A stretch of 64,000 nucleotides of DNA from Ilumatobacter sp. (GCA_035512975.1 DATKCX010000306.1:11372-75371), one strand, 5' to 3'; positions 7,054-33,738 are shown, counted from the stretch's first letter. Notes: generated by a model not told the origin, from the letters alone. Numbers and translations are program-made.

Positions 7054-7056
7054 CAG

Positions 7057-8434: not shown

Positions 8435-8568
8435 CGCCCGAGTCTGTCAGGAAGTCCCTCTCGTGCAGAAGGTGAGTGCACGCATGGGTACATGCACTGG
8501 CTACATGCATGAGCACTCATGCTCGACTCGCCGGTATCGTCTGAGGTCCGCGATACGAAGGATCACTC

Positions 8569-8895: not shown

Positions 8896-8995
8896 CGTTT
8901 CGGGAATCAGCGAATAGGTCGTTTCGCTCCCATTGAATCCACCGGTCATTCCGCGAGATCGGCTCGCGGACCACTCGTCTGCGAGACTCGTTGCC

Positions 8996-17890: not shown

Positions 17891-18889
17891 CTAGTTCCCG
17901 AGGTCCGGCCAGCGGCGTTGCTGTCGACGGCGCAAGCCGGCAGCGCCGAGTTTGCGGTGCTCGCCGAGCTCCCATTGCCTGCGCCATCCGTTGTACTCGG
18001 GGCCAGTCAATGCAGGGTTTGCGCCCCTGGCGGCCCGCTGCGTGGCAGTCCAATAATCGGTGAGGGCTTCATCGCCCAGTCGGGTGACGGCCGCTTCGAT
18101 CCGGGCATTGAATCGACGTGTGTTCTCTCCCTCCTCGGCCATGAGCGGTGCGCCGAAGACGACGTTGGTGCGGCCTGGCTTTGGGCGTTTCATGCCCTTG
18201 CCGAAAATGGCACCGGTGCCGTCGATGAACACGGGGATGACCGCCGCGCCGGTGCGAGCGGACAGGTACGCCGCACCACCTTTGAACTCTTGCCCCCAGC
18301 CATCGGGTGAGCGACCCCCCTCTGGGTAGATCAACAGGCTGTGCCCGTCGGCGAGCAGGTCACGGAACATGTCGGACGACTTCCGCCCGGTGATCTCACG
18401 GTCGATCGGAATGGCGTTCAGCGCCAGCGCCGACATGGCCGCCTTCCACCGCTGATCGAAGAAGTAGTCGGCCGCGGCTGCAACGACGAGGTCATGGCGC
18501 CAACAGGCCGGGATCGCTCGAATCATCAACCCGGTGTCGACATGGCTGTGGTGATTCGGTGCGAAGATCACCGCCGGAGGCGTGTCGAGGCGGGTGAGGT
18601 GGTCGAGGCGATCGAGCCCGGCGACGTCGGGGTTGGCAATGCCACGCACCATGGCCCTGAGTGGGCCCTCGGTGATGGCGATGCGGGCAGCCCTGGCCAG
18701 CGGTTGGCGCGCCCAGGCAGTGTCGTAGTTGGCCCCGAGCATCGACACTTCCGTGGGAACGCTGACGCCTTTGGGCACCGTGGGTGAGCGATACGGAAAG
18801 CCGTAGTTCCGGAGTGGTTTGGCGATGGCGCGCACCGCAGACTCAGCCTTCCCCGCAGCTCGACTGCCAGCCCGCAGATACCGGTTCAT
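17891..18889 (-). CDS. Lysophospholipid/glycerolipid acyltransferase
   Basis: IFAPNHHSHVD (HX4D), AAAADYFF and IYPEGGRS; start refined to ATG 18889. Confidence 0.88.
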   Translation of the reverse strand: MNRYLRAGSRAAGKAESAVRAIAKPLRNYGFPYRSPTVPKGVSVPTEVSMLGANYDTAWARQPLARAARIAITEGPLRAMVRGIANPDVAGLDRLDHLTRLDTPPAVIFAPNHHSHVDTGLMIRAIPACWRHDLVVAAAADYFFDQRWKAAMSALALNAIPIDREITGRKSSDMFRDLLADGHSLLIYPEGGRSPDGWGQEFKGGAAYLSARTGAAVIPVFIDGTGAIFGKGMKRPKPGRTNVVFGAPLMAEEGENTRRFNARIEAAVTRLGDEALTDYWTATQRAARGANPALTGPEYNGWRRQWELGEHRKLGAAGLRRRQQRRWPDLGN

Positions 18890-18907
18890 CGCCCCACCCC
18901 GCACTGA

Positions 18908-18934
18908 CACGCCTGGTGCCTGGCACCAGGCGTG
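18908..18934. repeat. Perfect 13-bp inverted repeat with GTGCC-T-GGCAC centre
   Basis: CACGCCTGGTGCC-T-GGCACCAGGCGTG in the spacer between the LarA-like and acyltransferase genes. Confidence 0.9.
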
Positions 18935-18941
18935 ATCGCGG

Positions 18942-20531
18942 TCATTCGACGTCGGCGACCAGGACGCCGGGGACGTGGAGGTGGGTGATGCTCGGGGAGC
19001 GGCCGACAACATCGGACGCGATCTCGAACGCGTCGTCCATCGTGGAAGCAGGCGTGAAACCCAAACGACGCACGGTGGGTGGGTCGCCGCCGACGATGAT
19101 GACCTTGCCGGCGTGCTGTTGCCCGTGAGCGCCCCAGTACCACGCGTAGAAGGGGTGCACACCGTGGTAGGCGTTGCCGGTGCGGTACAGATGGCGGTAC
19201 CACTCGTCCTCCGCGTACTTCTTCTCCCACTTCTGGCTCATCACCGCAGGGTCGGTGGTGTCGGCCAACACTTCGTCGTAGAAGTCGATGTAGCTCGGAT
19301 GGTGAACCGGGTTGAACTCTTTGTAGGTGGGGTGGGTCATGATCACGACGCCTCCCTCCTTCACGAGCGGTTTGCCGCGGTACATGTTGAACAGGTAGCC
19401 GAGCCCCATGCACATCACGAGGATCGGGTTCATCACGCCCTCGGGGTTGTACGGGCAGATGAACGGAATGCCCATGGTGAGGATGTCGGTCTGGCCGGCG
19501 ACGGGCACGAGGTGCTGTTTGTACACGTGCTCGAGGGTGATCTCGTGTACCGAGGGCGTGAACCCGGCCTGCACGCTGGTGACTTCGTACGGCGATTCGA
19601 TCGAGTGGAAGATCTTGCGCTTGGCGCTGTTCGGCAGCCGGTTGAGCGACTTCGTCGTCGCCAAGTACGTCGCTCGGTCGCGTGCGTTCCATTCCCACTC
19701 GCGCTTGGCCAGGAAGCCGAACGACGACGGAAACGCCTGCGTGTTGATGGTCGTCTCGACTTGGAAGATCTTCGGGCCGTGGTCGCGCAGCACCTTGCCC
19801 ATGCGCCAGATCGACTTGTGCAACGCCGAGTGATCACGGTCGCCCATGAGGCTTCGCGTGTTCTGCAGGGACTCAGGGTTGTGGTGATGGCTGAGGCAGC
19901 GGTAGCTCGCGAGCCCAGTGGTGATCGATTTCCAGCCGCCGTCCATCGCCACCTGATTGAGGTTGGCGTAGACGATGAGATCGCTGTCGGCAGCGCGCTT
20001 GTTGATCTCGAGGATCTCACCGTGGTCGGTGGTGCCGATGACGGCGAGGTTGTCGGGGTCTTCGGCGTCGTGCTGATAGAGCAGCCCGCGCGGATGGAAC
20101 GCGTCAAAAATTCGGTCGCCCAGCACGTGACGCAACTCGTAGTCGTGCATGCGTCGATGCAGCCCGAGCGCGGCGATGATGTGGATGTCGTCCACTCCCG
20201 CTGCGGCAGCGAGGTCGAGCACCGCTTCGATGATTCGCTGCCGGTTGTCGGGTCGGCGCATCTTGGGCAGCGACAAGCTCGCATCGTCGAACACGATGGT
20301 GAGCTTCATGTTCGGCACGAGGAGCGCCGGCAACGGCTCCATGTCGTGGGGGTTGAGGAGTGCGTTGCGAATCGCCCCATCGACGTCGGGGATACCCGGC
20401 AACGGTTCTGGCGGGTAGATCACCCGGCTGCGGTCGGCTGGCAGCTTCTCGAGACTGAAACCCTCACCACGCCAGAAGAGAATCGGCGGGGTGGAACGGT
20501 CGACGTCGAGGACAAATCCAGGGCGAGGCAT
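18942..20531 (-). CDS. Lactate racemase (LarA/DUF2088) domain protein, divergent
   Basis: LarA-like blocks IVFDD, ALGLHRRM, QHDAED, INKRAADSDLIV, DGGWKS and GGVVIMTHP recognised by eye. Confidence 0.75.
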   Translation of the reverse strand: MPRPGFVLDVDRSTPPILFWRGEGFSLEKLPADRSRVIYPPEPLPGIPDVDGAIRNALLNPHDMEPLPALLVPNMKLTIVFDDASLSLPKMRRPDNRQRIIEAVLDLAAAAGVDDIHIIAALGLHRRMHDYELRHVLGDRIFDAFHPRGLLYQHDAEDPDNLAVIGTTDHGEILEINKRAADSDLIVYANLNQVAMDGGWKSITTGLASYRCLSHHHNPESLQNTRSLMGDRDHSALHKSIWRMGKVLRDHGPKIFQVETTINTQAFPSSFGFLAKREWEWNARDRATYLATTKSLNRLPNSAKRKIFHSIESPYEVTSVQAGFTPSVHEITLEHVYKQHLVPVAGQTDILTMGIPFICPYNPEGVMNPILVMCMGLGYLFNMYRGKPLVKEGGVVIMTHPTYKEFNPVHHPSYIDFYDEVLADTTDPAVMSQKWEKKYAEDEWYRHLYRTGNAYHGVHPFYAWYWGAHGQQHAGKVIIVGGDPPTVRRLGFTPASTMDDAFEIASDVVGRSPSITHLHVPGVLVADVE

Positions 20532-21751
20532 CAGTTGTGCTCTTTCGTTTCGCGCATATCAAAGGCGATCTTGACGGCACCCCGGCGACCAGCGGACGAG
20601 GCGTGGGCAATGGCATCGACGTGTTCGCCGAGCCGGTAGGTGGCCGAGAGCAATCGCTCGGCCTCGTAGAAGTTGGCAGTGTCGGCGGCCAAGTCGAAGG
20701 TGCGAGCCGTAGTGCCGTCTGCCATCGTCTCGGTGCCGTAGGTGTAGGCACCTTTGAGTTCGGTTTCGCGGTGCCAGAGGCCAGTGAGATCGAGCTTCAC
20801 GTCTGCGGGCATACCCACCAGCACGACCCGCCCGCGCGGTCGGGTGATCCGGATGGCGTCGGCGATCGAGTCGCTGGAACCGACCGCGTCGATCGTGGCA
20901 TGCGCGCCCGACGACAGGTACTGGCCGCCGGCCGGTGAGTCCCCGATGATGTGGCAACCGACCTCGCGACGTACCGCAAGGTCGAGTTTGCTCGACGGAA
21001 CGACGATGTCGGCACCGACTGCTTTGGCCAGCGCCAACTGATGGGGGTAGCGACCGCCCACCACGATGCGAACTCCTGGCACGTACCGCTTCAGGCCGGC
21101 GATGACCGCGAGGCCGACGGTGCCGGCACCGATCACGGCGACGACAGGATCTTGCGTGTCGCGGAGTACCGCGCCAGCGGTGAGGGCTGCGTGAATGCCG
21201 CCGGCGAGCGGTTCGATCAGGACAGCCCGCTCGTCGGGGACGTCGTCGGGAATGGCGTGGAGCTGAGACTCGTGGGCCCAGAACCATGGCCCCCAACCTC
21301 CTCCGGTGGAACAACAGAACCCGGTCTGCAGCCCAGCTTCCACGCCCGTGCGCGACGTGGTGGCGAGATGCGCGTAGTCGTCGCCATCTGCGGGGCAGGC
21401 ACCATCGAACGGCAGCGCGACGCCGCGGGCGGCATGCCCGAGCACCGGTTCCAACACCACGCGAGATCCGTCATCGAGGTGGCCGACGACCTCGTGGCCG
21501 GGCACGAACGGGAACGACACGAAGTCGTCGAAATAGGTCGACGCATGGCCTTCCACGAGCGACAGGTCGGACCCGCAGATGCCCGCAAGGCGGGTGGTGA
21601 CGCGATGCCAACCGTCGCCGGGGGAGGACGGGTCGTCGACCGATCGATACTCCAGCGGCCCGATTCGAGCTGCGGTGGCCGGCGCAACAGCCGACGCGAT
21701 GCGAGCCATCCCGAACCGAGCCGGAGCCCGCTTCACCTGCAACGCCTTCAT
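20531..21751 (-). CDS. Zinc-binding (MDR) alcohol/polyol dehydrogenase
   Basis: AGICGSD, PGHEVVG, IEPLA and IGAGTVG; TGATG overlap with the LarA-like gene; start refined to ATG 21751. Confidence 0.88.
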   Translation of the reverse strand: MKALQVKRAPARFGMARIASAVAPATAARIGPLEYRSVDDPSSPGDGWHRVTTRLAGICGSDLSLVEGHASTYFDDFVSFPFVPGHEVVGHLDDGSRVVLEPVLGHAARGVALPFDGACPADGDDYAHLATTSRTGVEAGLQTGFCCSTGGGWGPWFWAHESQLHAIPDDVPDERAVLIEPLAGGIHAALTAGAVLRDTQDPVVAVIGAGTVGLAVIAGLKRYVPGVRIVVGGRYPHQLALAKAVGADIVVPSSKLDLAVRREVGCHIIGDSPAGGQYLSSGAHATIDAVGSSDSIADAIRITRPRGRVVLVGMPADVKLDLTGLWHRETELKGAYTYGTETMADGTTARTFDLAADTANFYEAERLLSATYRLGEHVDAIAHASSAGRRGAVKIAFDMRETKEHN

Positions 21752-21768
21752 CGTCCACCCACCAACAT

Positions 21769-21799
21769 GGCGTGGATGGTGTCTGACACAAACCACGCC
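21769..21799. repeat. Imperfect inverted repeat with GTGTC-T-GACAC centre
   Basis: GGCGTGG-ATG-GTGTC-T-GACAC-AAA-CCACGCC in the FAR-HAD/dehydrogenase spacer. Confidence 0.75.
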
Positions 21800-21800
21800 T

Positions 21801-24155
21801 TCATCGGAAGGTCCTCCGGCGTTCGCGTTCTACCATCATTTCGCCGATGGGCAACAACGGCACGGAGGCACCTTTCGACTTCGACCAGTTCTCCACCAAC
21901 CAGCCACGCTTGCGGGCGATGGCGGCCAACCGGGTCTCGGGGTTCACTGCAACGGGGAAACCGACCGCCTCGAACAGCGGCAGGTCCGACGACGAGTCGG
22001 CGTAGGCGACGCACTCGTCGAGCCGAAACCCTTCGGCCGAGCAGTAGTCGGCCAAGATCTGGGCGCGGGCCTCGCCGGTGGGCGGCACGGTCATCATTTC
22101 TCCGGAGTAGGTGCCGTCGGCCTTCACACTCATCTCGGCCGACACGATCTCGTCGAACAAGGGCTTGAGACCGGCGACGTTGAACGACAACGCGCCGGTG
22201 ATCAACACCGTGCGGTGGCCGGCAGCACGATGCTCACGCACTCGCCGCAAGCCCTCTGGGAAGCTCTTCGCCATGATGAGGTGGGTCATCATCTCCCGCG
22301 CATCTTCCTCGATCTGCTCGATCGGCGCGTTCTCGTAGCGGCGGTAGAAGTGGCGCAGGAAGTCGGTGCGGTCGCGGCTGTCGAGTTTCAACAGGCGCGG
22401 CGCCTCCGACATCGTGCGCATGACATAGCGCATGCGCTCGGGCCCGTTCAGGCGGCGGGTGGCGAGGAACGAGTAGCTCTCGACGACGTTCGAGGCGATG
22501 AGCGTGTTCTCGAGGTCGAACGCGGCGACGTGACGCTTCGGGTCGAGCACCTGCTTGCGGAGACGGGTGGCGCGGTCTGGGGTTTGCGACTTGCCCGGAT
22601 TGGACTTCACGCGAGCGTGCTGCACGATCGACGGCAGGTGGATGCCGGTGACGTAGTGCTCCCAGTCGACCGACGCCGGGTTGAAGTTGAACGCGGCTTG
22701 GTCGGCCTCGTCGAGCGAGTTCCACAGCGCCATCAGGTTGTCGACCTGGTAGATCGCTTCGCATTCGGTGTACAGGCCGTAGAGCTCGACGTACTGGAGT
22801 GCGGTGTCGATCTCGGTTCGCTTCGCTTCCAACGTGGCCGCGAACTCAGCTCGCTCACCACGCAGTGGCAGAGCCTGCAACGTCTTTTCGGCGACGTTCA
22901 ACACCTTCTTGGCACGGTCGAGCTGCTGCTGTACTCGGCCACGACCGAGGAAATTCCATTCGGGCACGAGAATCGGCTGACCCTCGTTGTCGTAGAGCGG
23001 GTGCTCGGTGAACCAACCAGAGATGTAGTTGATCATCGCCCGGTACTTGAGCGGGTTGATGCCACCCGACGCGACGTGCGTGATCGCCGGCGCATCTTCA
23101 GGGCCAGCGGCTGCCACAGCAATGATCGCGGCCACGACGATGTCGACCGGAATCACGTCGACGGTGCCTTCCGGCACGCCTGGGAACTCTTTCAGCAGAC
23201 CTCGGGCGTAGCTGATGATGACCGGTTCGGCCATGCGGAACCCACGAATCCAGCCCGGCTTCGGTTCGGCCCAGGCCGACTCGATGATCGAGGGGCGCAC
23301 GATCGACACGGGCACGTTGCCTTTGGAGTCGGTGAGCGCCTGCTCGCCGAGCGCTTTGGTGAACGCGTAGGCGTCTGGCCAACCGACGCTGGCGGCGCGA
23401 GAGCGCCCAGCTTCGACCAACTGATCCTTGACCCAGCGCTCACGGAGCTGCTCGGTCTTGGCGGCGAGCGCCGGGGCACCGGCAGCGCCGAGCTCGTTGC
23501 GGGCCTCTTTGCGGTATCGCACCAACCGCTCCGGTTGGCGGCTGAGCGACTCGGTGTCGCCCCATAACCGACGTGAAGCGGCAACCTCGGACTTCCACGA
23601 CAGGCCGATGTCGAACGGCCCAGCGCTGACCAGTTCTTCTGGGGCGTTGCCGCGCCGGTTGCCGGCGACATAACACGTACTCACCGCAACGAGGTGCGGG
23701 GTGATGCCGAGCTTCTGGCAGAGCTCGACGATGCGAACCGGCCCGAGCAGGTTGATCTCCACCGCTCGGTCGAGTGGCGAGTCGAACGACACCGTCGCCG
23801 CCGAGTGGATGATGGTGTGAGCGGTGGCCCACAGCGCCGTGTCGGCTTCGTTCAAACCGAGACCGTCACGCGACACGTCGCCTGCGACGGTGGTGATGCG
23901 GCGCGCCACCATCTCGTCGAAGGTTTCCGGCGAACCTGGCGCATTGAACTGCTCGCGCAGTCGATCGAACGCATCGTTCTTGAGGAGCTCTTTGCGGGTA
24001 CGTTCCGACGCCGTGGTGCGGCGCCCGTCGCGTACGAGCAGGATGAGCTCACAGTCGGGTACGCCGCGCAACAGCCGTTCTACGAGTGCGGTGCCGACGA
24101 AGCCGGTTCCCCCCGTGACGGCGATGCGCTTGCCAGCGAGCGATGCTGCGATCAC
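21801..24155 (-). CDS. Fatty acyl-CoA reductase (NAD_binding_4 + male-sterility C-term) fused to HAD-IB phosphatase
   Basis: VTGGTGFVG, IHSAATVSFD, YAFTK (YxxxK), IVRPSIIES, DVIPVD and FNPASVDW; then AFDLENTL and YADSSSDLPL..AVNP. Start refined to GTG 24155. Confidence 0.88.
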   Translation of the reverse strand: MIAASLAGKRIAVTGGTGFVGTALVERLLRGVPDCELILLVRDGRRTTASERTRKELLKNDAFDRLREQFNAPGSPETFDEMVARRITTVAGDVSRDGLGLNEADTALWATAHTIIHSAATVSFDSPLDRAVEINLLGPVRIVELCQKLGITPHLVAVSTCYVAGNRRGNAPEELVSAGPFDIGLSWKSEVAASRRLWGDTESLSRQPERLVRYRKEARNELGAAGAPALAAKTEQLRERWVKDQLVEAGRSRAASVGWPDAYAFTKALGEQALTDSKGNVPVSIVRPSIIESAWAEPKPGWIRGFRMAEPVIISYARGLLKEFPGVPEGTVDVIPVDIVVAAIIAVAAAGPEDAPAITHVASGGINPLKYRAMINYISGWFTEHPLYDNEGQPILVPEWNFLGRGRVQQQLDRAKKVLNVAEKTLQALPLRGERAEFAATLEAKRTEIDTALQYVELYGLYTECEAIYQVDNLMALWNSLDEADQAAFNFNPASVDWEHYVTGIHLPSIVQHARVKSNPGKSQTPDRATRLRKQVLDPKRHVAAFDLENTLIASNVVESYSFLATRRLNGPERMRYVMRTMSEAPRLLKLDSRDRTDFLRHFYRRYENAPIEQIEEDAREMMTHLIMAKSFPEGLRRVREHRAAGHRTVLITGALSFNVAGLKPLFDEIVSAEMSVKADGTYSGEMMTVPPTGEARAQILADYCSAEGFRLDECVAYADSSSDLPLFEAVGFPVAVNPETRLAAIARKRGWLVENWSKSKGASVPLLPIGEMMVERERRRTFR

Positions 24156-24164
24156 GGAACACTG

Positions 24165-24180
24165 TCTACCATCTGGTAGA
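24165..24180. promoter_or_regulatory. Candidate TetR operator TCTACCA-TC-TGGTAGA
   Basis: Perfect 7-bp inverted repeat in the 47-bp spacer between the divergent FAR operon and tetR. Confidence 0.65.
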
Positions 24181-24202
24181 GAGACCTGCAATACTGAAGA
24201 CA

Positions 24203-24823
24203 ATGTCATCTCCGACAGTTCGCGAAACGAGCACGCGCCAGCGGATCCTCGACGCCGCGCTCGACTTGTTCGGATCGCGCGGGGTCGACGCCGTCTCACT
24301 CGACGAAATCGCCCGCGAAGTGGGCGTTCGAAAGCAGACCGTGCTGTATTGGTTCGCGTCGAAAGATGAACTGCTCGACGCGGTGCTCGAAGAGGTGGCC
24401 GCAGAACTGATCGTGGTGATCGACGCTGCCGTGCGGTCAGCGGAACCAGATCCGCTCCAGCGCATCGACGCGGTGGTGCGCGCCGTGTTTCGGCCTGCGG
24501 TCCGTCGCCCGGCGATGTTGGGGTTGGTACGTGAACTCACGCGGTTGCCCGAAGCTCACGCGGATCGGCTCCGGGTGCGCGTGCAGCCCCTGGTCGACCG
24601 ATGCGTCGAGTACCTCGAGCAAGAGATGGACAAGGGGCACCTTCGTCGGGCCGATGCGCGCCTGGTGGTCGGTCTGGCCTACGCCACCGTGACAGGAATC
24701 GCCACCGATCGCGAGGTCTTGCGAGCGGTCGGTTGGCAACCGACCACCTCGGGTCTGCGCCACCTGCGGGACGAGTTGCGAGCATTCCTGCGGGCCGCCC
24801 TCGCACCGCCCGCGCCCATCTGA
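24203..24823 (+). CDS. TetR/AcrR family transcriptional regulator
   Basis: TRQRILDAALDLF..SLDEIAREVGVRKQTVLYWFASK HTH. Confidence 0.92.
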   Translation: MSSPTVRETSTRQRILDAALDLFGSRGVDAVSLDEIAREVGVRKQTVLYWFASKDELLDAVLEEVAAELIVVIDAAVRSAEPDPLQRIDAVVRAVFRPAVRRPAMLGLVRELTRLPEAHADRLRVRVQPLVDRCVEYLEQEMDKGHLRRADARLVVGLAYATVTGIATDREVLRAVGWQPTTSGLRHLRDELRAFLRAALAPPAPI

Positions 24824-24863: not shown

Positions 24864-26003
24864 TCACACGGGAACGGTCGCCGCTCCTGCAGAGGGGGCA
24901 CAGATCCACACCGCCGCCGTGAGTCCGTCGAACTGGTAACGGTCGATCACGGAGCGACCGAACGCTTCGGTGTGTTCCGACGAGACCAGCGCAACCGCGC
25001 AACCAGCGAATCCGCCGCCGGTCATGCGGGCCCCGAGACACCCCGGAGCGTCGAGAGCAATCTCGACGATGTGGTCGAGAGCCGGGGCCGACACCTCGAA
25101 GTCGTCGCGCAAGCTGATGTGACTCTCGCTCATGAGCCGCCCGAACTCGGAGACGTCGTGTCGCTTCAAGGCGTCGACGGCTCGGAGAGTACGAGCGTTG
25201 TCGGTGACCACGTGGCGCGCCCGCCGACGATCGACCGGGTCGGTCACCTGGCTGAGCTGCTCCACGGTGACATCACGGAGGGCCACGACTCCGAGCTCGG
25301 CTACGGCCCGCTCGCACGACGCACGGCGGTCTCCGTACGCTGCCTCGGCCAGCACTCGTCGAGTTCGAGTGTCCATGATGGCCACCGCCGCACCACTCGG
25401 CAGCGGAATCGGCTGCAGTGTCGTGGCCCGACAATCCATCAAGCTTGCATGCCCGGCGACTGCGCCGGCCGAGATGAATTGGTCCATGATGCCGCTCCCG
25501 AGGCCGACGATCTCGTTCTCCACCCGCTGGCTGAGGCGGGCGACTTCGATCGGCGACCAGCTCACGTCGGCACGCGCCAGCAGACCGGTGACCAGTGCCA
25601 CTTCGAGCGCTGCCGACGACGACAGGCTGGCACCGACGGGGATGTCGGTGGCGATCGCCGCCCGCCAGCCGCCGGTACGAATGCCGTGTTCGCGCAGGAG
25701 TGTGACGACCCCTGCGATGTGTCGGGCCCACGGCACGACGGATCGCGGATCGCCGGCCGGGTCGATCTCGAGGTCGCCGAACCCGTCGGATGAGACGATC
25801 ACGGTTCCCGAATCGGGGTCGCCATGGTCGCTCCACGCGATGGCAGTGTCGAACGGCAACGCCATCGGCAGGGCAAACCCCTCGTTGTAGTCGGTGTGTT
25901 CACCGATCAGATTCACCCGCCCCGGTGCCCGCGAGAGGAATCGGGGCGGCCCCCACCGGTGGGCGTGGTCGGTCTTCGCTTGTTCGATGGCTCGATGGTT
26001 CAT
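24864..26003 (-). CDS. galK: Galactokinase
   Basis: APGRVNLIGEHTDYNEG, IPVGASLSSSAALE, GIMDQ and GARMTGGGFAGC; ATGA overlap with the alpha-galactosidase stop. Confidence 0.95.
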   Translation of the reverse strand: MNHRAIEQAKTDHAHRWGPPRFLSRAPGRVNLIGEHTDYNEGFALPMALPFDTAIAWSDHGDPDSGTVIVSSDGFGDLEIDPAGDPRSVVPWARHIAGVVTLLREHGIRTGGWRAAIATDIPVGASLSSSAALEVALVTGLLARADVSWSPIEVARLSQRVENEIVGLGSGIMDQFISAGAVAGHASLMDCRATTLQPIPLPSGAAVAIMDTRTRRVLAEAAYGDRRASCERAVAELGVVALRDVTVEQLSQVTDPVDRRRARHVVTDNARTLRAVDALKRHDVSEFGRLMSESHISLRDDFEVSAPALDHIVEIALDAPGCLGARMTGGGFAGCAVALVSSEHTEAFGRSVIDRYQFDGLTAAVWICAPSAGAATVPV

Positions 26004-28099
26004 GATCGGAGGTGGATCAGCACGGCGGTGTCGGGGTCGACGGCGGGCAACTGAAGGCCGACCGTGGCCAGGGCCGCACCGGTGGCGATCACGCCGCCCG
26101 GTCGACACCATGCAGGCAGCGTGTGCCCCGGCTGTCGGTGTTCGACGCCGGGAACGTTCAGACGTTCCACTCGATAGGCCCGAGCGGGCTCGAGGTCGGG
26201 CAGGAGCAGCGGGGGAGGTGTGAGACTGAATGCGGTGGCGATCAGCGCGAACGACACGATGGCCTCGCTCCGGTCGGGCGCATAGACGCCGTGCGCCACG
26301 TACGCTGCCTCGGTGTCGAACCTGACGGGGTCGCCCCCGTGGAGCAGCGTGCGAAAGCGACGATGCAATGCGACGACGTCGGCGAGCTGTTCGAGTTCGT
26401 CGTCCGACAGCGCGAGCAGGTTGGATTCGATGCCGAGGTGGCCGAACAACGCCGTCGCAGCTCGAAACCCGAGGTCGTGCCGGCGGCCTGTGGTGTGGGA
26501 TCTACGGTCGCCGACGTGGGCACCCATCAGCTCGGGTGGGATCAGCATCGACAGGCCACGCTGGATCGTTTGACGTTCCACGGGGTCGTTGCAGTCGCTC
26601 GCCCACACGCGTTCGGCACGTCGGAGTATTTCGTGGTCGATTCGCGCGCCGCCCGACGCACACGATTCGATCTCGACGTGCGGGTGCCTGGCCCGCAGCT
26701 CGTCGAGCAGTCGATAGACGGCCCGAGTCTGAGCGTGCGTGCCTGCGGCACCGGTGGTGCCGGACGCGGCGATGTGGTCCCGGTTCATGTCCCACTTCAA
26801 GAAGGCGATGTCGTGATCGCGGAGCAGCGCGTCGATCTGACCGAACACGTGTCGATACGCGTCGTGGTGGGTGAGGTCGAGCATGAGCTGATGCCGCGAC
26901 AGCACCGGTTCGTAGCCGTCGGTGGTGAGGGTCCACTCCGGATGCGCCCGGTACAGATCGCTGTCGGGGCTCACCATCTCGGGCTCGACCCACAGACCGA
27001 ACTCCATGCCGAGCCCGCGCACGTGATCGATCAGTGGCGTCAATCCATCCGGAAAGACGTCGGCGGCGACGACCCAGTCTCCGAGGCCGGCACGATCGTT
27101 GCGTCGAGCACCGAACCAACCGTCGTCGAGCACGAACCGTTCGGCACCCACTCGGGCGGCGCGATCAGCGAGCGCCAGCAGCGAGGGCAGTTGCTGCTCG
27201 AAGTAGACGGCCTCCCAAGTGTTCACGATGACGGGTCGTGGGGTCGTCGGGTGGGTCGATCTGGCGCGCAGATGCCGATGGAACTGTTGCGTCGCGGCGG
27301 TCAGACCGTGATCCGAATGCACGCCGATCACCTCCGGTGTGCGGTACGACTCGCCGGGAGCCAAGGCGATCTCGCCCGGGTGCAGCAGTTCCCCGAGCTG
27401 CAGCATTCGCTGACCGTCGGGGAGCCGTTCGGCGAGGATGGTGTGATTGCCGCTCCACGCCAGATGTGCGCCCCACACCGAACCGTCCCACTCTCGATAC
27501 GCGGGTGTACCGGCGAACACGAGCGGCGGATGCTCGTGAGACGTGCGTCCGGTGCGATTCTCGAACGAGTGAGCTCCGTGCGGCCACGCAGTTCGTGTCG
27601 GATGCATCTCGCGCGTCCAGCGACCGCCGAACGTGCCGAGTTCGCCGACGTGCTGGGGGACCGGCAACGTGATGGTCAACGCACCGAGCAGGTAAGGCGC
27701 GCGGCCCACGTTGGTGACCTCGGCCCACACCACCAGTGCTTCGCGCAGTTCGATCGTGACCGCGATGGTCAATCCGGCGATGTCGTCGCGGGCCCGCACC
27801 ACGACGCGCGCGCCATCGGGGTCGAGTTCGTGACCGTCGGGTTCGAACCGGGGAGCCCATGCCGAGCCGCCGGGACGGTGGCCGATCAATCCGGGCCGTC
27901 CGCTGAATCCGGACGCATGTTCTGGCACCACGGCCACGGGTGCCACCACGTCTGCCGCTCCACTGACCAGCGGTCGATCGAGCATCGCTGCATCGAAGCC
28001 ATCGGGGAGGTGGGCTCCCCAGTGCACGATGATCGGCACGCCGGCTGAGACGTCGACGAAGACGTCGCTCGCGTGCCCGTGCAGATGGAGCAGATTCAT
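26000..28099 (-). CDS. Alpha-galactosidase (GH36)
   Basis: NTWEAVYF, FVLDDGWF, FGLWVEPEM, LKWDMNR, ESCASGGAR and WASDCND motifs. Confidence 0.95.
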   Translation of the reverse strand: MNLLHLHGHASDVFVDVSAGVPIIVHWGAHLPDGFDAAMLDRPLVSGAADVVAPVAVVPEHASGFSGRPGLIGHRPGGSAWAPRFEPDGHELDPDGARVVVRARDDIAGLTIAVTIELREALVVWAEVTNVGRAPYLLGALTITLPVPQHVGELGTFGGRWTREMHPTRTAWPHGAHSFENRTGRTSHEHPPLVFAGTPAYREWDGSVWGAHLAWSGNHTILAERLPDGQRMLQLGELLHPGEIALAPGESYRTPEVIGVHSDHGLTAATQQFHRHLRARSTHPTTPRPVIVNTWEAVYFEQQLPSLLALADRAARVGAERFVLDDGWFGARRNDRAGLGDWVVAADVFPDGLTPLIDHVRGLGMEFGLWVEPEMVSPDSDLYRAHPEWTLTTDGYEPVLSRHQLMLDLTHHDAYRHVFGQIDALLRDHDIAFLKWDMNRDHIAASGTTGAAGTHAQTRAVYRLLDELRARHPHVEIESCASGGARIDHEILRRAERVWASDCNDPVERQTIQRGLSMLIPPELMGAHVGDRRSHTTGRRHDLGFRAATALFGHLGIESNLLALSDDELEQLADVVALHRRFRTLLHGGDPVRFDTEAAYVAHGVYAPDRSEAIVSFALIATAFSLTPPPLLLPDLEPARAYRVERLNVPGVEHRQPGHTLPAWCRPGGVIATGAALATVGLQLPAVDPDTAVLIHLRS

Positions 28100-28207
28100 C
28101 GTGACCGAGAGTCTGCCCGGTGTTCGGCGTGCAGTGCGAGCGGCACCAGGAATCCATGGAGATCGAACTCGTAGTCGTCGACCTCCGTCGGTTGGTTCGC
28201 CGTGCTC

Positions 28208-28243
28208 GTCGGGGTGCCGGTCGGGGTGCCAGTCGGGGTGCCG
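28208..28243. repeat. 12-bp tandem repeat x3 (GTCGGGGTGCCR)
   Basis: Units at 28208, 28220 and 28232 in the divergent promoter region. Confidence 0.9.
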
Positions 28244-28269
28244 GCCGTGTCAGGGGACTCGAACACTTT

Positions 28270-28337
28270 GTTCATCTTTCGAAAACTAGCGGTTCATCTT
28301 GACAGCAAACAGCGATTTGTGAAAGTATTCGAAAGTA
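28270..28337 (+). promoter_or_regulatory. Promoter (TTGACA 28299-28304) with repeated GTTCATCTT / GAAAGTA / CTTTC boxes; candidate DeoR operators
   Basis: AT-rich island; GTTCATCTT twice 22 bp apart; GAAAGTA twice 10 bp apart; TTTCGAAA palindrome. Confidence 0.6.
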
Positions 28338-29207
28338 ATGGAACGTCTAGGGGGGCTTCCGGACACCCATCTCCTGCTGGAGGTGCGGTTGGTCCTGATC
28401 CAGCAACTGCTGGAACAACGTGGGTTCGTCCGCGTCCGAGATCTCGCCGAGCGGTTCGGCGTGTCCACCGTGACGGTACGCACCGACTTGCAACTCCTGG
28501 AGGAACGCCAACTCGCGTTCCGTGTGCACGGTGGCGCGATGCCGTTCAACGGCGCACGCGGCGAGCGCACCTTCGAGGAGGTCGCCGAGCGCCAGGCGTC
28601 CGAGAAGATGTCCATCGCGTCGGCCGCCGCAGCACTGGTCGCCAACGGCGAGACCATCGTCATCGATGTCGGCACCACCGCCGCCGCGTTCGCTCAGGCC
28701 ATCGTCGATCGTCTCGATCTGCAAGATCTCACCGTGCTCACGAACGGTCTCAAGATCGCGTTGTTGCTCGAGGCGGCGCACCCGCGCTTCACCATCGTGG
28801 TGACGGGCGGAACCTTGCGCCCGAAGCAGCACTCTCTTGTCGAACCGCAAGCGACCGACATGTTCCGGTCGTTGCGGGTCGACTCAGTGTTCCTCGGCTG
28901 CAACGGTGTGTCCACCGACGGCGGCGTCACGAACATCAACCTCCCCGAGGCCATCGTGAAGCGAGCCATGATCGCCTCCGCCGCTCGGTGCGTGGTGATG
29001 GCCGACAGCACCAAGCTCGGCGTTCGCACGCTCGCGCCGGTGTGTGACCTCGAGCAGATCGATGTGCTGGTCACCGACGGCGGTGCCGATGCCGGCGACC
29101 TCGAGGTCATCAGGGCGCACGGAGTCGACGTCGTCGTCGCCGAGCAGCCCGCAGTACGCGATCGCCGCGTCGAACGCGGCATCGACCAACGATCGTCCGG
29201 GTCCTGA
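28338..29207 (+). CDS. DeoR/GlpR family transcriptional regulator
   Basis: VRDLAERFGVSTVTVRTDL, RVHGGA, IDVGTT, VLTNG and FLGCNG motifs. Confidence 0.93.
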   Translation: MERLGGLPDTHLLLEVRLVLIQQLLEQRGFVRVRDLAERFGVSTVTVRTDLQLLEERQLAFRVHGGAMPFNGARGERTFEEVAERQASEKMSIASAAAALVANGETIVIDVGTTAAAFAQAIVDRLDLQDLTVLTNGLKIALLLEAAHPRFTIVVTGGTLRPKQHSLVEPQATDMFRSLRVDSVFLGCNGVSTDGGVTNINLPEAIVKRAMIASAARCVVMADSTKLGVRTLAPVCDLEQIDVLVTDGGADAGDLEVIRAHGVDVVVAEQPAVRDRRVERGIDQRSSGS

Positions 29208-29295
29208 CCTGGGGGTACCTGGCTCACACGCGTGGGCAGGGGGAGCAAGCGGTGGCGGCGAAGCCGTCACCACGACACACAAGGAGCAGCACATC

Positions 29296-30714
29296 GTGCA
29301 CAAGCGCAGATTGACCGCCGCTGTGGTGGCCATCACGTTCGTCATCGCCGCATGCGGCGACGACGACGACACCACCGCAGACACCACCGCAGACACGACC
29401 GCAGACACGACCGCAGACACAGCGGCCGAGACAGAAGAAACGGCAGAAGAAACCGCGACCACCGCTGGCTCAGCGGCAACCGATGGGGAATCGGCTGACG
29501 GAGCAGTAGAGGTTCGTTGGCGCACGCGTCCCGACAACGACGCCGAGGCGGCCGTGTACGCCGGCATCAGCGATTCCATCGACGAGGCCAACGGCGACGC
29601 GTTCAGCCTCGCCTACGAGCCGGGCAACAACGAGGGCTCGCCCTATCAGGACCAACTCGTCACCGAGATCGCCAACGGCACGGCACCCGACGTGTTCTGG
29701 ATTCCCGGTACCGACATCGCCCGGTTCCAGAGCGAGGGCCTGATCCTCGACCTGGCACCGCTCGCCGCCGAAGACGAGTTCGACACGTCGGAGTTCTACC
29801 CGGAGACGATGTACCACCTCACGTACGATCCCGAGGCCGGCGCGCCGGGCGACAAGTTGTGGGGTCTGCCCCGCGACGTGTCGACCTTTGCGCTGTACAT
29901 CAACAACGACCTCATCGCCGAGGCCGGCGCCGACGACCCGCGCGCCCTCGCCGAAGCAGACGAGTGGAACTGGGAGACCTTCGCAGAGGTGGCCACGCAA
30001 GTGACCGAGCTCGGTGGCGCGAACAAGGGCTTCGCCATGAACAGTTGGTGGGCGAACTACGGCTACTTCTTGAACGCCGCTGGTGGTGGCTTCTTCAACG
30101 AAGATCGCACGGAGTGCGCGCTCGACACCCCCGAGAGCATCGCCGGTTTGACCCAGATGCAGTCGCTGTACGAGGGTGGACTCACCGTCGCCTGGGGCGA
30201 AGACGGAGAAGCGCCGTGGAAGGCCGGGACGGTCGGCATGTTCATCAACGGTCGTTGGGCAACTCCCGGCGCACGCGCCGACGCCGGATTCAACTGGGAC
30301 GTCGTCGAGCTGCCCACCGGACCCGGAGGAACGCAGGGCAACTTCCTGTTCTGGGGTGCCTACGTGGTGAACGCTCAGACCGAACATCCGGAAGAGGCAT
30401 TCGAACTGGTGAAGGAACTCACCAGTTCCGAGACGCAAGCGTCGATCAGCGAACTCGGTGCCAACATCCCGAGCCGCCAGAGTGACGCCGCCATCGACGC
30501 GTTCCTCGGCTTCGCGCCGCCCGAGAACAACCAGGCGTTCATCAGTGCCCTGCAGGATTCGCCGACTGCCGAGGGTCCGCTGTGGGCGGGTGACTGGCCG
30601 AAGTACGACGAGGTCATGGGTGCCGCGATCACCGCAGTTGTGAACGGGGAGCGGACAATCGAGGACTTCGAAGCCAACATCTGTTCCGAAACTGCCGTCG
30701 CCTTCGAGGGCTGA
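29296..30714 (+). CDS. Sugar ABC transporter substrate-binding lipoprotein
   Basis: AAGGAG SD at 29281; lipobox VIAAC; APDVFW and WGLPRDVSTFALYINNDL (SBP family 1). Confidence 0.92.
   Translation: MHKRRLTAAVVAITFVIAACGDDDDTTADTTADTTADTTADTAAETEETAEETATTAGSAATDGESADGAVEVRWRTRPDNDAEAAVYAGISDSIDEANGDAFSLAYEPGNNEGSPYQDQLVTEIANGTAPDVFWIPGTDIARFQSEGLILDLAPLAAEDEFDTSEFYPETMYHLTYDPEAGAPGDKLWGLPRDVSTFALYINNDLIAEAGADDPRALAEADEWNWETFAEVATQVTELGGANKGFAMNSWWANYGYFLNAAGGGFFNEDRTECALDTPESIAGLTQMQSLYEGGLTVAWGEDGEAPWKAGTVGMFINGRWATPGARADAGFNWDVVELPTGPGGTQGNFLFWGAYVVNAQTEHPEEAFELVKELTSSETQASISELGANIPSRQSDAAIDAFLGFAPPENNQAFISALQDSPTAEGPLWAGDWPKYDEVMGAAITAVVNGERTIEDFEANICSETAVAFEG
29368..29420 (+). repeat. 12-bp tandem repeat x4 encoding (DTTA)n linker
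   Basis: gacaccaccgca / gacacgaccgca units. Confidence 0.9.
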
Positions 30715-30723
30715 TTCAACCTC

Positions 30724-30773
30724 GCATCGGGGTCGGCGACCAGCTCGTCGATCATGGTCGTCGACCCCGATGC
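30724..30773 (+). terminator. 19-bp intercistronic stem-loop after the SBP gene (mRNA stabiliser or partial terminator)
   Basis: GCATCGGGGTCGGCGACCA pairs with TGGTCGTCGACCCCGATGC (one G-U); no U-tract. Confidence 0.7.
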
Positions 30774-30811
30774 TCGATCTTTCGAATATTTCGCTGACCG
30801 GGGGAGGCAAT

Positions 30812-32527
30812 GTGAAACCGAGCACGACATTGATTGATGTCACGAGTGACGTGATGGCACCCTTACCACGGGCCGTACAACCGACCGCCGAGTCGTTCGC
30901 CAAGCTGGCGCGGATCCTCTCGATCTGGCATGCGATCGGTGCCGTCACGTGCGTGATCGGGCTGTTGCTCGCCAGCCGAGGTGGCGACGACCAGTTGCCG
31001 TGGATGCCGCGATTCGCACTCCAGGGTTTCTTCGTCCTTGCCACGTTGGCGAACGTCGCCTCGGCGTACGGCATCGTCACCACGAAACAGTGGGCTCGTT
31101 CGGCGTCGCTCGTGGTGAACTACCTCCTCGCGGTCGTCGCCGGCGTCGCCACGTTGCACCAGATCAACGCATTCCGCGCCCTCGGCAACCTGGGCGACGG
31201 GCTGTACAAGGCGTTCGTGCCATTCCTGTTCGTGCTGCTCGGCCTCATCGTGGTGCTGGTCGCTCTGCAGCTCCTCGCCGATCGCCCGACCGCACCGACC
31301 CTGCTGCGGGTGAAGCGCGCCGGATGGATCTTCACTGCGGCGGCGGGCGTCTGGTTCGTGGTGAAGGCCGACCCGACCGGCATGCTCAGCAAGCTCGGGG
31401 ACAGCGTCATGAAACCGTTGACGCTGGGTTGCTTGGCCATCACCCTGGGCGCCGCATTCGCTTGTAGAGCGATGTGGTCGCGATCGGCGGCGCGGTACTT
31501 CGGCACGTCGCGCGCCGCCGAGGAAGCGTTGAGCGGGCTGGCGTTCTTGTCGCCGAACCTGCTCGGATTCTCGGTGTTCTTCGCGTTCCCCCTGCTGTTC
31601 TCGTTGTGGGTGAGCCTCTTCGACTGGAAGACCACGAACACCGGCAAGGACTTCATCGGGCTCGACAACTACGCACGGGCGTTGTCGCTCGACATCTCCG
31701 GTGCCAGCACGGCTGGTGCCGGCACCGAGGTCCTCAAACCCGGGTACCAGGTGCTGATGCACCTCGACTGGTTCGGGAACAACTGGGTGCTCGGTGCCCG
31801 CGACGTCGAGTTCTGGCTGTCACTTCGGAACATCACGGTGTTCCTCGTGCTGGCGGTGCCGCTGTCGGTCATCCCCGCATTGGTGCTGTCGAGCATCCTC
31901 GCATCACGCCTGCCGGGCATGAAGGTGTTCAGGACGATCTATTTCATCCCGTCGGTCGCCGGGGTGATCGGTGTGGCGATCATCTGGGGTCAGATGTTCG
32001 ACGCCACGATCGGCTGGATCAACTATCTGCTCGACCTCGTCGGATTGTCGGAACCTGGGCAAGGCCACGGGTGGCTGTCTCAGCGCAGCACGGCGCTGTA
32101 CGCGATGGTGGTCGTGTTCGCCTGGATGAACTTCGGTTTCAACACCGTGTTGTACTTGGCGGGCCATCAGGGAATCCCGAAAGAGTTGTACGAAGCCGCC
32201 GAGATCGATGGTGCCAACGTGTGGCAGGTGTTCAAGAGGATCACGGTGCCGCAGCTCCGCAACACCACGTTCTACGTGCTGGTCACCACGTCGATTCTCG
32301 CCCTGCAGTTGTTCGACGTGGTCTGGATCCTGTCGCGTCCCGAACCCGGCGGGCCCAACAACGCCACGACGACGCCGGTGCTGGCGCTGTACGAGGAGGC
32401 GTTCACGAACAACAGTCAGGGCTACGCGTCGGCCCTGGCATGGATCTTGTTCCTCATCATCTTCGGGTTCACGTTCTTCCAGTTCCGACAGCAGCGCGAT
32501 GAAGCCACCAGTGGAGGTGTGTCATGA
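30812..32527 (+). CDS. Carbohydrate ABC transporter permease with long N-terminal membrane extension
   Basis: FRTIYFIPSV and LYEAAEIDGA..VFKRITVP (EAA loop); GGAGG SD before GTG 30812. Confidence 0.9.
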   Translation: MKPSTTLIDVTSDVMAPLPRAVQPTAESFAKLARILSIWHAIGAVTCVIGLLLASRGGDDQLPWMPRFALQGFFVLATLANVASAYGIVTTKQWARSASLVVNYLLAVVAGVATLHQINAFRALGNLGDGLYKAFVPFLFVLLGLIVVLVALQLLADRPTAPTLLRVKRAGWIFTAAAGVWFVVKADPTGMLSKLGDSVMKPLTLGCLAITLGAAFACRAMWSRSAARYFGTSRAAEEALSGLAFLSPNLLGFSVFFAFPLLFSLWVSLFDWKTTNTGKDFIGLDNYARALSLDISGASTAGAGTEVLKPGYQVLMHLDWFGNNWVLGARDVEFWLSLRNITVFLVLAVPLSVIPALVLSSILASRLPGMKVFRTIYFIPSVAGVIGVAIIWGQMFDATIGWINYLLDLVGLSEPGQGHGWLSQRSTALYAMVVVFAWMNFGFNTVLYLAGHQGIPKELYEAAEIDGANVWQVFKRITVPQLRNTTFYVLVTTSILALQLFDVVWILSRPEPGGPNNATTTPVLALYEEAFTNNSQGYASALAWILFLIIFGFTFFQFRQQRDEATSGGVS

Positions 32528-33729
32528 GTGTGAAGCGCAAAGGGCCCAAGGCGACCGCCATCCGGGCGCTCACATACGTCGTGCTCGTGATGGTGGCGCT
32601 CGTCGTGATCTTTCCGTTCGCGGTTGCGCTGACCACGTCGTTCAAGAACAACGACGACATCTTCCGATACCCACCCACGCTGATTCCGCGCGAAGCGGCC
32701 ACCATCGCCGCCGATCAGGTCGGTGCCGAGGGCGAAGCGTTGCCGCTGTACACCCTGCCCGACGCGCCGGGCAGCTTCGCGCTGATCGATCCCGACGTGT
32801 CGGTGGCCGAGTTCCGGCCGCTCGACGATCTCGACCGCGTGCTCACCCTCGATGCATCGGCCGGTGAACGCACCGGTGCCACCGTGACGATCGACGGCGA
32901 CGAAGAAGACGTGTTCCTCATCGAAGCCGACGGCGGAGTGATCGAGGCCTATCGATCTCGGCTGACGTCGGGAGGTCTGTTCCAGAACGTCGACGACCCC
33001 GCCGACACCGAACTCGGGCTGGTCAATTTCGCTGAGCCCGTCGAGCAGTTCGGTGCGCGAACCGAGAACTTCAGCGACGTGTGGACCGACAAGGAACTCG
33101 GCCGGTCGTTGAGCAACACGGTCCTCGTGACCTTCGCGGTGGTGATCGGCCAGATCGTCACGTCGATCCTCGGTGGCTACGCGTTCGCGCGCATCGACTT
33201 CAAGGGTCGCAACGGGCTGTTCATGCTCTATCTCGGCTCCGTCATGGTGCCGTTCGTCGTGCTGATCATCCCGCTGTTCCAGCTGATGTTGCAGTTCGGT
33301 TGGCTCGACAACCTGTCGGCCCTGATCATCCCGTTCGCCTTCACCGCCTACGGCACCTTCCTGATGCGGCAGTTCTTCGTGGGCATCCCGAAGGAGATCG
33401 AGGAAGCCGCCCTGCTCGACAACGCGTCGCGTTCGAAGATCCTGTGGAGGATCATGGTGCCACTGGCCCGACCGGCGATCGCCACGTTGGCGACCTTCGG
33501 CTTCCTGTACGCGTGGAACTCGTTCTTCTGGCCGCTCGTCATCATCAACTCGGGTAACCCGGAGGGTCGCGTGTTGTCGCTCACGCTGTCGACGTTGGGC
33601 GGCAGGTCGAGCACCGACATCAACCTGGTGTTCGCCGGCGCAGTGATCGCGATGACACCACCGATCCTGGTCTTTCTGTTCGCACAGCGCTATTTCGTCG
33701 AGAACTCCGCGTCGAGCGGACTCAAGTAA
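32524..33729 (+). CDS. Carbohydrate ABC transporter permease with extracytoplasmic insertion
   Basis: GGYAFARIDFKGR, IEEAALLDNA EAA loop and AWNSFFWPL; ATGA coupling to the previous gene. Confidence 0.92.
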   Translation: MSVKRKGPKATAIRALTYVVLVMVALVVIFPFAVALTTSFKNNDDIFRYPPTLIPREAATIAADQVGAEGEALPLYTLPDAPGSFALIDPDVSVAEFRPLDDLDRVLTLDASAGERTGATVTIDGDEEDVFLIEADGGVIEAYRSRLTSGGLFQNVDDPADTELGLVNFAEPVEQFGARTENFSDVWTDKELGRSLSNTVLVTFAVVIGQIVTSILGGYAFARIDFKGRNGLFMLYLGSVMVPFVVLIIPLFQLMLQFGWLDNLSALIIPFAFTAYGTFLMRQFFVGIPKEIEEAALLDNASRSKILWRIMVPLARPAIATLATFGFLYAWNSFFWPLVIINSGNPEGRVLSLTLSTLGGRSSTDINLVFAGAVIAMTPPILVFLFAQRYFVENSASSGLK

Positions 33730-33738
33730 GGAATCACC

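Follow-up and report, generated by a model that had tools for sequence, protein, structure and literature searches.

The peroxisomal route to ether lipids relies on FAR1, GNPAT, AGPS, and an alkyl-dihydroxyacetone phosphate (alkyl-DHAP) reductase. Since 2014, myxobacteria have been known to make alkyl ether lipids mainly via the elb genes, without AGPS (operon elbABCDE; Lorenzen et al., 2014, as covered by the reviews PMC9131029 and PMC13012113). According to PMC9131029, disruption of elbD in Myxococcus xanthus strongly lowers both alkyl and vinyl ether lipids and disruption of elbE lowers them as well, whereas disruption of AGPS has a minor effect; thus, elbD, and probably elbE, is needed, and the ether-forming step of the elb route is left without an assigned enzyme. 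Here, a four-gene operon and its divergently transcribed TetR-family regulator were analyzed in a 64,000-nucleotide stretch of Ilumatobacter sp. (GCA_035512975.1, DATKCX010000306.1:11372-75371), referred to below as the window. The operon encodes a fatty acyl-CoA reductase fused to a haloacid dehalogenase-type domain (FAR-HAD), a zinc-dependent medium-chain dehydrogenase/reductase (MDR), a LarA homolog (LarAH), and a PlsC/AGPAT-type acyltransferase (AT). From comparison of sequences, and with somewhat more confidence than doubt, it is interpreted as the Acidimicrobiia form of an elb-type, AGPS-independent pathway to 1-O-alkyl glycerolipids, in which LarAH would carry out a hydride-borrowing, ether-forming step.

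The elbABCDE genes run from MXAN_1531 to MXAN_1527 (PMC13012113) and elbD is MXAN_1528; thus, elbC is MXAN_1529, whose product was assigned to group 15 of the LarA homologs (Desguin et al., 2020, PMC7583248). LarAH from the window is 48% identical to this protein over 387 residues (E = 4e-128). ElbC, encoded beside elbD, is described as a “protein of unknown function” in one review (PMC9131029) and carries no assigned function in a 2026 figure of the elb operon (PMC13012113); ElbD combines FAR, acyl-CoA synthetase (ACS), acyl carrier protein (ACP), and AGPAT domains, and ElbB is a HAD protein (PMC9131029). The resemblance to elb, which the original prediction had put forward, is therefore correct and stronger than supposed, extending to ElbC as well as to the HAD, FAR, and AGPAT components. 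As expected of an elb-type cluster, the ElbC homolog in the window adjoins FAR and AGPAT domains, and a HAD phosphohydrolase is represented by the FAR-fused PF12710 domain, which was compared by alignment with the free HAD of L081. Both clusters contain a FAR-type reductase, AGPAT-type acyltransferase domains, and a COG0560/PF12710 HAD, and neither contains AGPS. The architectures differ, with FAR-HAD and a free AT in the window, whereas M. xanthus has a FAR-ACS-ACP-AT megaprotein and a free HAD; likewise, a Zn-MDR (80% of loci) stands against the short-chain dehydrogenases/reductases (SDRs) ElbA and ElbE of the “NAD-dependent epimerase/dehydratase” type. The window operon also differs in having a TetR regulator and a conserved candidate operator.

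Related gene neighborhoods were already tabulated for three groups of LarA homologs in Table S1 of Desguin et al. (PMC7583248). The neighbors of group 14 include AGPAT (COG0204, 88%), HAD (COG0560, 88%), MDR (COG1063, 88%), and thioester reductase (COG3320, 50%); those of group 15 include two COG0451 SDRs, a COG0560 HAD, and a COG1022 acyl-CoA synthetase; and those of group 16 include COG0204 and COG0560, with larB, larC, and larE absent from the listed neighbors of all three. The original prediction had called the pathway unrecognized, which holds for its interpretation, since the table offers none, and not for the co-occurrence itself. Literature searches returned no link between LarA or its nickel-pincer nucleotide (NPN) cofactor and ether lipids.

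The distribution of the operon was examined by a scan of one genome per species, with a 12-sequence alignment (A2) as the query, as a 42-sequence alignment (A1) was too diverse for scanning. At least 600 matches were obtained, of which the best 80 (L001-L080) were examined; all 80 are from Acidimicrobiia, and taxa outside this class were sampled via contigs encoding more distant LarAH homologs. Among the best 80, carriers include Ilumatobacter nonamiensis, Aquihabitans sp. G128, Salinilacustrithrix flava, Candidatus Microthrix, and the sponge symbiont Candidatus Poriferisocius, and the close homologs carry the names Ilumatobacter or Ilumatobacteraceae. Counting only loci with enough flanking DNA, FAR-HAD lies upstream of LarAH on the same strand in every case (60/60), AT lies downstream of LarAH in every case (72/72), and an ortholog of the divergent TetR is present in 51 of 59. 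Synteny in other genomes, on which the original prediction had made itself depend, is thus borne out, and the retention of this order among the 80 Acidimicrobiia loci is far beyond chance. The MDR gene is present in 48 of 60 loci and absent from 12; it is therefore regarded as accessory to a core of FAR-HAD, LarAH, and AT. In the MDR-less loci (L041, L042, L044-L046, L052, L057, L065, L068, L072, L075, L077, L079, and L080), FAR-HAD directly adjoins LarAH, and a search for a substitute reductase beside the operon found none.

LarAH is also the best conserved of the operon proteins in 33 of 37 loci, with a mean identity to its orthologs of 73.8%, as compared with 69.7% for FAR-HAD, 60.8% for AT, 58.0% for TetR, and 55.6% for MDR. 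The nearest public genome is represented by a contig of a metagenome-assembled genome (L019) with ∼84% nucleotide identity to the window. Its LarAH gene (6334-7921) differs from that of the window at 130 of 1287 bases, with 117 of these differences in the third position of a codon, corresponding to one amino-acid change in 429 codons. The L019 gene is frameshifted by a 2-nt indel, probably an assembly error.

By its sequence, LarAH is a member of the LarAH14/15/16 family, scoring 854.9 bits against NCBIfam NF052592 over all model positions (1-520 of 520; curated equivalog cut-off, 740 bits), and an ortholog of Ilumatobacter coccineus YM304_22240. The latter was placed in group 14, as were Acidimicrobium ferrooxidans Afer_1430 and Frankia Franean1_4168 (“LarAH14”) (Desguin et al., 2020, PMC7583248). 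Across the first 199 amino acids of the Frankia protein, LarAH shares 63% identity with it. It agrees with the group 14 signature in Table S3 of the same study (D-L-H-gap-gap-Q-K-H...N), sharing the pattern D-L-H-gap-gap-x-K-H and the same AGPAT, HAD, MDR, and thioester reductase neighbors, so that nothing essential sets it apart and it is a new member of the group. NF052592 is named “NPN-dependent hydroxyacid isomerase”; its only assayed member, Frankia LarAH14, was inactive in all seven racemase/epimerase assays, and the group is listed as of “unknown function” (PMC7583248). The AlphaFold (AF2) model of LarAH (pLDDT 95.8) indicates the two-domain LarA fold, and a Foldseek search of the PDB with this model returned LarA-family chains as its top 19 matches, the best being 9q3k (TM 0.79/0.87). 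Among solved structures, the nearest to LarAH are the single-histidine enzymes LarA_Sp and LarA_Bw (9q2u/9q3k and 9q3j; group 17; sequence E = 8e-32), which share the ∼500-aa format, one catalytic His, the Lys tether, and the His ligand, whereas identity to LarAH is only 21-23% and the group 17 genes lie among glycolytic and sugar genes rather than lipid genes.

Residues D83, H125, K201, and H217 of LarAH align with D73, H115, K195, and H211 of 9q2u and are equivalent to Asp72, His108, Lys184, and His200 in LarA_Lp numbering. By alignment, D83 would bind the ribose, H125 would be catalytic, K201 would tether NPN, and H217 (K+16) would be a nickel ligand. All four are invariant in alignment A2, the clade of the window protein, and among 42 homologs with 28-48% identity they co-vary, a given protein having all four or having lost most of them. 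The K+16 spacing was used for the nickel ligand because the “His221” given for LarA_Sp (PMC12611868) does not match 9q2u, where H211 is the histidine at K+16 and position 221 holds Phe; the published number may be a slip. The other published numbers (D73, K76, H115, N185, and K195) agree with a count along that chain.

The substrate-facing positions are different. The loop bearing His174/Phe175 (Asn185 in LarA_Sp) is deleted in LarAH, the Arg75 position (Lys76 in 9q2u) is occupied by Leu86, and the carboxylate-binding equivalents of Arg75, Gln295, and Lys298 are absent; in group 17, by contrast, Asn stands in for His174 and Lys for Arg75. A simple lactate or 2-hydroxy-acid racemase, the outcome against which the original prediction had staked itself, was rejected, since the second catalytic His (His174) and the carboxylate-binding residues are missing and Frankia LarAH14 is inactive. 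For LarA homologs of this kind, hydride transfer “to an adjacent site” was suggested by Desguin et al. (PMC7583248).

Motifs were also examined in the remaining operon proteins. In the FAR part, the TGxTGFxG motif, S159, Y263, and K267 are invariant in 63 sequences, and the closest PDB entry is the fatty acyl-CoA reductase 7eoz (E = 7e-66). The HAD part is of type IB (TIGR01490, 3.5e-27). Its motif I (F-D547-L-E549-N-T, aa 545-550, window 22507-22524) and D720/D724 are invariant in 63 Acidimicrobiia sequences. The MDR is similar to ketose reductase and to sorbitol, xylitol, and idonate dehydrogenases (closest PDB entries, ketose reductase 1e3j, 5e-19, and sorbitol dehydrogenase 1pl6), with the catalytic Zn ligands C59, H86, E87, and E180 invariant in 60 sequences. 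Such ketose and polyol dehydrogenases reversibly reduce a ketone at C2 to a secondary alcohol with a CH2-O group on either side. All 66 AT sequences compared have H113x4D118 and P-E-G-G-R-S, and the closest PDB entry is Thermotoga maritima PlsC (5kym). A wax-ester synthase system, consisting of FAR and a wax ester synthase/diacylglycerol acyltransferase (WS/DGAT), was considered and rejected, as AT is of the PF01553 PlsC type with HX4D and EGGR motifs and has 5kym as its closest structure.

Contigs with more distant LarAH homologs revealed other arrangements of the same parts. The order in L081 is MDR, LarAH, a diacylglycerol (DAG)-kinase-like gene, a 791-aa FAR-AT fusion, a free HAD, and PlsY, and the parts homologous to window proteins are 34, 31, 38, 48, and 36% identical to them (HAD 31%, LarAH 48%). 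On a JGI contig, LarAH is followed by an ElbD-like protein of 1561 aa with FAR, AMP-binding, ACP, and AT domains and then by an SDR. The fusion of FAR variously with HAD, with AT, and with all of these parts argues that FAR, HAD, and AT act in one pathway. A LarAH homolog with 40% identity and Asn at position 400 (P0132) lies in a non-lipid, archaeal-looking context, and the lipid link is therefore limited to groups 14-16 rather than extended to all ∼500-aa LarA homologs. The contig of P0128 has a flavoprotein upstream and shows nothing further, and those of P0124, P0125, P0135, and P0140 are too short for gene context.

The AGPS-dependent route, as present in peroxisomes and in MXAN_1676-1674 of M. 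xanthus, likewise joins a FAR, a GNPAT/AGPAT-type acyltransferase, and a ketoreductase. MXAN_1675 has its parallel in the FAR-AT fusion of L081, and LarAH stands in its operon where AGPS stands in MXAN_1676-1674. Unlike that route, the window operon has no FAD-dependent AGPS, and the proposed exchange catalyst differs in both fold and cofactor. As anticipated in the original prediction, no gene for AGPS (FAD_binding_4 plus FAD-oxidase_C) or PlsA/Ger was recognized among the larger open reading frames (ORFs) of the 64-kb window, nor was WS/DGAT.

LarA chemistry consists of the reversible abstraction of a hydride from a carbon bearing a hydroxyl group. FAR, AT, and HAD have ordinary predicted activities in ether-lipid synthesis, and the step still without an enzyme is the conversion of an sn-1 ester or hydroxyl to an ether. 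LarAH is left for this unusual step, and as the only core member without an ordinary role, and the most constrained one, it is the leading candidate for forming the ether bond. The nature of the lipid and the function of each enzyme, that of LarAH most of all, are inferences from these comparisons. In the proposed scheme, the FAR domain would convert acyl-CoA to a fatty aldehyde or alcohol and AT would acylate the glycerol-phosphate backbone. LarAH with its tethered NPN would then borrow a hydride from the C2 hydroxyl of the backbone, giving a transient 2-keto (DHAP-like) intermediate in which C1 is made reactive, so that an O-alkyl group could replace O-acyl or a free hydroxyl before the hydride is returned. 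Since LarAH has one catalytic His and no second base, it is expected to act on one face, as an isomerase or exchange enzyme rather than a racemase; having no carboxylate site, it would act on a non-acid alcohol, with the hydride returned without inversion. The more specific proposal, that the LarAH14/15 proteins including ElbC are NPN enzymes that build the alkyl ether bond by transiently oxidizing the C2 hydroxyl of glycerol, is held less likely than not and is put forward tentatively.

Two variants of this scheme can be envisaged. In variant (a), 1-acyl-glycerol 3-phosphate (1-acyl-G3P) would be oxidized to bound 1-acyl-DHAP, a fatty alcohol would attack C1 of the α-acyloxy-ketone, and return of the hydride would yield 1-alkyl-G3P; this fits the MDR-less loci, because no external reductase is needed. 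In variant (b), a fatty aldehyde and G3P would form a hemiacetal, followed by dehydration and transfer of the C2 hydride to C1 of the alkyl chain to give alkyl-DHAP, which MDR (ElbE in myxobacteria) would then reduce; such a route accords with the M. xanthus aldehyde described below. Where present, MDR would reduce released alkyl- or acyl-DHAP, and in either variant the HAD domain would remove the phosphate.

Several observations weigh against the proposed elb-type ether-lipid pathway. On the myxobacterial side, the review of the elb genetics (PMC9131029) reports insertions in elbA, elbB, elbD, and elbE and none in elbC; an elbD-dependent iso-15:0 aldehyde is seen in M. xanthus, with no fatty alcohol; and Pontiella has ElbD homologs, yet ether lipids were not detected (PMC11868695). 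No report of ether lipids in Acidimicrobiia was found in the searchable literature. Within the locus, Pfam finds no AMP-binding or PP-binding domain in the four operon proteins that would match the ACS and ACP domains of ElbD, the operon has no separate SDR gene as a counterpart of ElbE, and larB, larC, and larE, whose absence the original prediction had also proposed to check, were not found among the larger ORFs of the window. The HAD motif I has Glu at nucleophile+2 in place of the general acid/base Asp, and the Acidimicrobiia domain may, to judge from this substitution, have altered chemistry; canonical DxDGT is present in the free HAD of L081 and in the FAR-HAD of L088. The original prediction held that every step of the peroxisomal route except that of AGPS has a candidate in the operon; this mapping is weakened by the absence of MDR, the proposed alkyl-DHAP reductase, from 20% of loci.

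A further point against the proposed pathway comes from degenerate copies, which also speak for the likeliest of the alternatives. L088 has FAR-HAD, MDR, LarAH (7634-9253), and AT in the same order as the window, and L089 has TetR followed by FAR-HAD, LarAH (7001-8536), and AT, but their LarAH proteins carry the substitutions H125R, K201A, and H216L and H125N, H216L, and H217Q, respectively. Because these homologs and those of group 16, judged probably not NPN-using by Desguin et al. (PMC7583248), keep the operon despite having lost anchoring residues, cofactor chemistry may not be essential to the pathway. Ether or fatty-alcohol lipids might thus be made with LarAH working independently of NPN, whether as a scaffold, as a subunit that binds lipid or substrate, or as a regulatory partner of FAR and AT, the ether bond coming from the reductase/acyltransferase pair or an unlinked enzyme. 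That no larBCE genes were found in the window would accord with this. Such a role is nevertheless unlikely, given that the four anchoring residues are invariant in both the Acidimicrobiia and the myxobacterial clades, that LarAH is the most constrained protein of the operon, as is typical of an enzyme active site, and that the degenerate copies may be paralogs, genes of groups 14 and 16 occurring side by side in Frankia genomes.

It is rather improbable that the product is a fatty-alcohol or aldehyde lipid other than a glycerol ether, such as wax-type esters, acylated alkanols, or long-chain 1,2-diol lipids derived from 2-hydroxy fatty acids, with LarAH isomerizing or oxidizing a secondary alcohol, for example at C2 of a 2-hydroxyacyl chain. 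The Sterile domain carried by FAR, the action of characterized LarA enzymes at C2 of 2-hydroxy acids, and the lack of head-group or CDP-alcohol genes in the operon would all be accommodated. However, AT is of the PlsC/AGPAT type and not WS/DGAT; HAD, together with PlsY and the DAG-kinase-like gene in L081, indicates a glycerol-phosphate backbone; LarAH does not have the carboxylate-binding residues of 2-hydroxy-acid LarAs; and the homologous elb cluster is genetically tied to alkylglycerol lipids.

Also considered, and held very doubtful, was LarAH as a backbone isomerase, converting sn-G3P to sn-glycerol 1-phosphate or epimerizing another polyol or sugar phosphate and thereby supplying an unusual backbone or head group for AT. 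LarA_Sp and LarA_Bw have glycolytic and triose-phosphate genes as neighbors and were seen with a phosphorylated ligand bound (PMC12611868), MDR is polyol-dehydrogenase-like, and HAD phosphatases act on small phosphate esters. Stereo-inversion by LarA requires two opposed acid/base residues, however, and the second position is the one deleted in LarAH; this isomerase would also leave FAR without a role, even though every architecture has it fused or adjacent. Finally, a catabolic operon for TetR-controlled use or remodeling of exogenous lysolipids, alkylglycerols, or fatty alcohols is highly improbable, for although local TetR-type repressors often control catabolic or efflux operons and the neighboring genes are for sugar utilization, FAR and PlsC-type acyltransferases are biosynthetic, as are the homologous elb genes, and the neighbors are not conserved with the operon.

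The gene calls underlying this interpretation are listed in Table 1. ORF and Pfam analysis placed the four co-oriented genes of the original prediction on the minus strand (17891-24155), with the divergent TetR beside them, and its TGATG overlap is formed by the MDR stop and the LarAH start, read in the sequence as aacTGATGcct; the remaining intergenic gaps within the operon are 49 and 52 bp. The predicted 47-bp gap between TetR and FAR-HAD holds provided that FAR-HAD begins at GTG 24155, which was taken as the start because the (G/A)TG-ATC-GCC N-terminus is kept in 48 orthologous loci; the other possible start, ATG 24209, would run into the TetR gene. A promoter scan did not find a sigma-70-type site, no terminator-like sites above chance level were found inside the four-gene block, and no membrane span was predicted in any of the four operon proteins (AT hydropathy maximum, 1.24). 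The intergenic palindrome sits 10 bp upstream of the FAR-HAD start, and ∼42 of the 48 intergenic regions of orthologous loci have TCTACCAnnTGGTAGA or a near variant in this position, which makes the palindrome a good candidate for the TetR operator. A TetR repressor bound there would keep the operon off under standard culture until a lipid-type signal is received.

Table 1. Coordinates of the operon, its regulator, and the intergenic palindrome within the window.
Feature	Position (nt)	Strand	Evidence and remarks
TetR-family regulator	24203..24823	+	TetR_N 3e-15, TetR_C_24 (Pfam); divergent from operon
Perfect palindrome TCTACCAtcTGGTAGA	24165..24180	n/a	In 47-bp TetR/FAR-HAD gap; candidate TetR operator
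FAR-HAD fusion, 784 aa	21801..24155	-	GTG start; NAD_binding_4 1.8e-60, Sterile 2e-08 (Sterile/FAR_C region), HAD PF12710 1.5e-25
FAR part of FAR-HAD, aa 9-515	24131-22611	-	Fatty acyl-CoA reductase domains
HAD-IB phosphatase-like part of FAR-HAD, aa 541-757	22535-21885	-	HAD domain
Zn-dependent MDR, polyol-dehydrogenase/ketose-reductase type, 406 aa	20531..21751	-	ADH_zinc_N 1.3e-14, ADH_N 2.8e-08
LarA homolog (LarAH), 529 aa	18942..20531	-	Pfam Lar_N PF09861 5e-35; NF052592
PlsC/AGPAT-type acyltransferase (AT), 332 aa	17891..18889	-	PF01553 5.2e-15; HX4D = H113-D118

The flanks of the operon are unrelated to it, with gltB, gltD, and a LysM protein on one side and galK, glycoside hydrolase family 36 (GH36), DeoR, and sugar ABC transporter genes on the other. 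The latter region (24864-38724) comprises galK, a GH36 alpha-galactosidase, DeoR, a sugar ABC transporter (binding protein, two permeases, and a MalK-type ATPase), and a GH2 beta-galactosidase. A functional tie to the neighboring gltBD or galactoside genes was rejected, as they are not syntenic in other genomes. The window begins inside a gene for a HAD (PF12710)-AGPAT (PF01553) fusion (3-1007, plus strand), followed by a PAP2_3 phosphatase gene (1126-1977, plus strand); this fusion is a second HAD/acyltransferase pairing in the genome, ∼17 kb from the operon, and is probably a housekeeping PlsC-type enzyme. Two AMP-binding (acyl-CoA-synthetase-like) genes (38755-40299 and 42837-44252) lie 15-20 kb from the operon and unlinked to it, and could serve in acyl-CoA supply; between them (within 38755-44252) are an ECF sigma/RskA-type anti-sigma pair and a Lipoprotein_15 repeat protein. 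Farther along, a co-oriented block on the minus strand (53422-59224), which could be a peptide-modification cluster, encodes an ABC ATPase (53422-54276), a family-less 314-aa protein (54280-55224), a radical SAM protein (55500-56582), and an 877-aa protein with a C-terminal match to Peptidase_M3 (56591-59224).

The cluster thus represents a new architectural variant, and homology to elb supports the main line of its interpretation as a candidate ether-lipid pathway. Recognition of ElbC as a LarA homolog provides a concrete candidate for an AGPS-independent ether-forming enzyme, and the core of FAR-HAD, LarAH, and AT, kept across a whole actinobacterial class, constitutes a minimal system. The orphan LarAH14/15/16 family thereby gains a first plausible function. 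If the interpretation is true, LarAH14/15 would be a non-flavin, non-radical analog of AGPS, catalyzing the first LarA-family reaction that is neither racemization nor epimerization and giving the nickel-pincer cofactor its first role in lipid synthesis. If it is true, non-isoprenoid alkylglycerol biomarkers might also derive from Acidimicrobiia, a class abundant in marine and freshwater habitats, in sludge, and in sponges. Surveys that query full-length ElbD, AGPS, or Ger may under-detect the split architecture found here.

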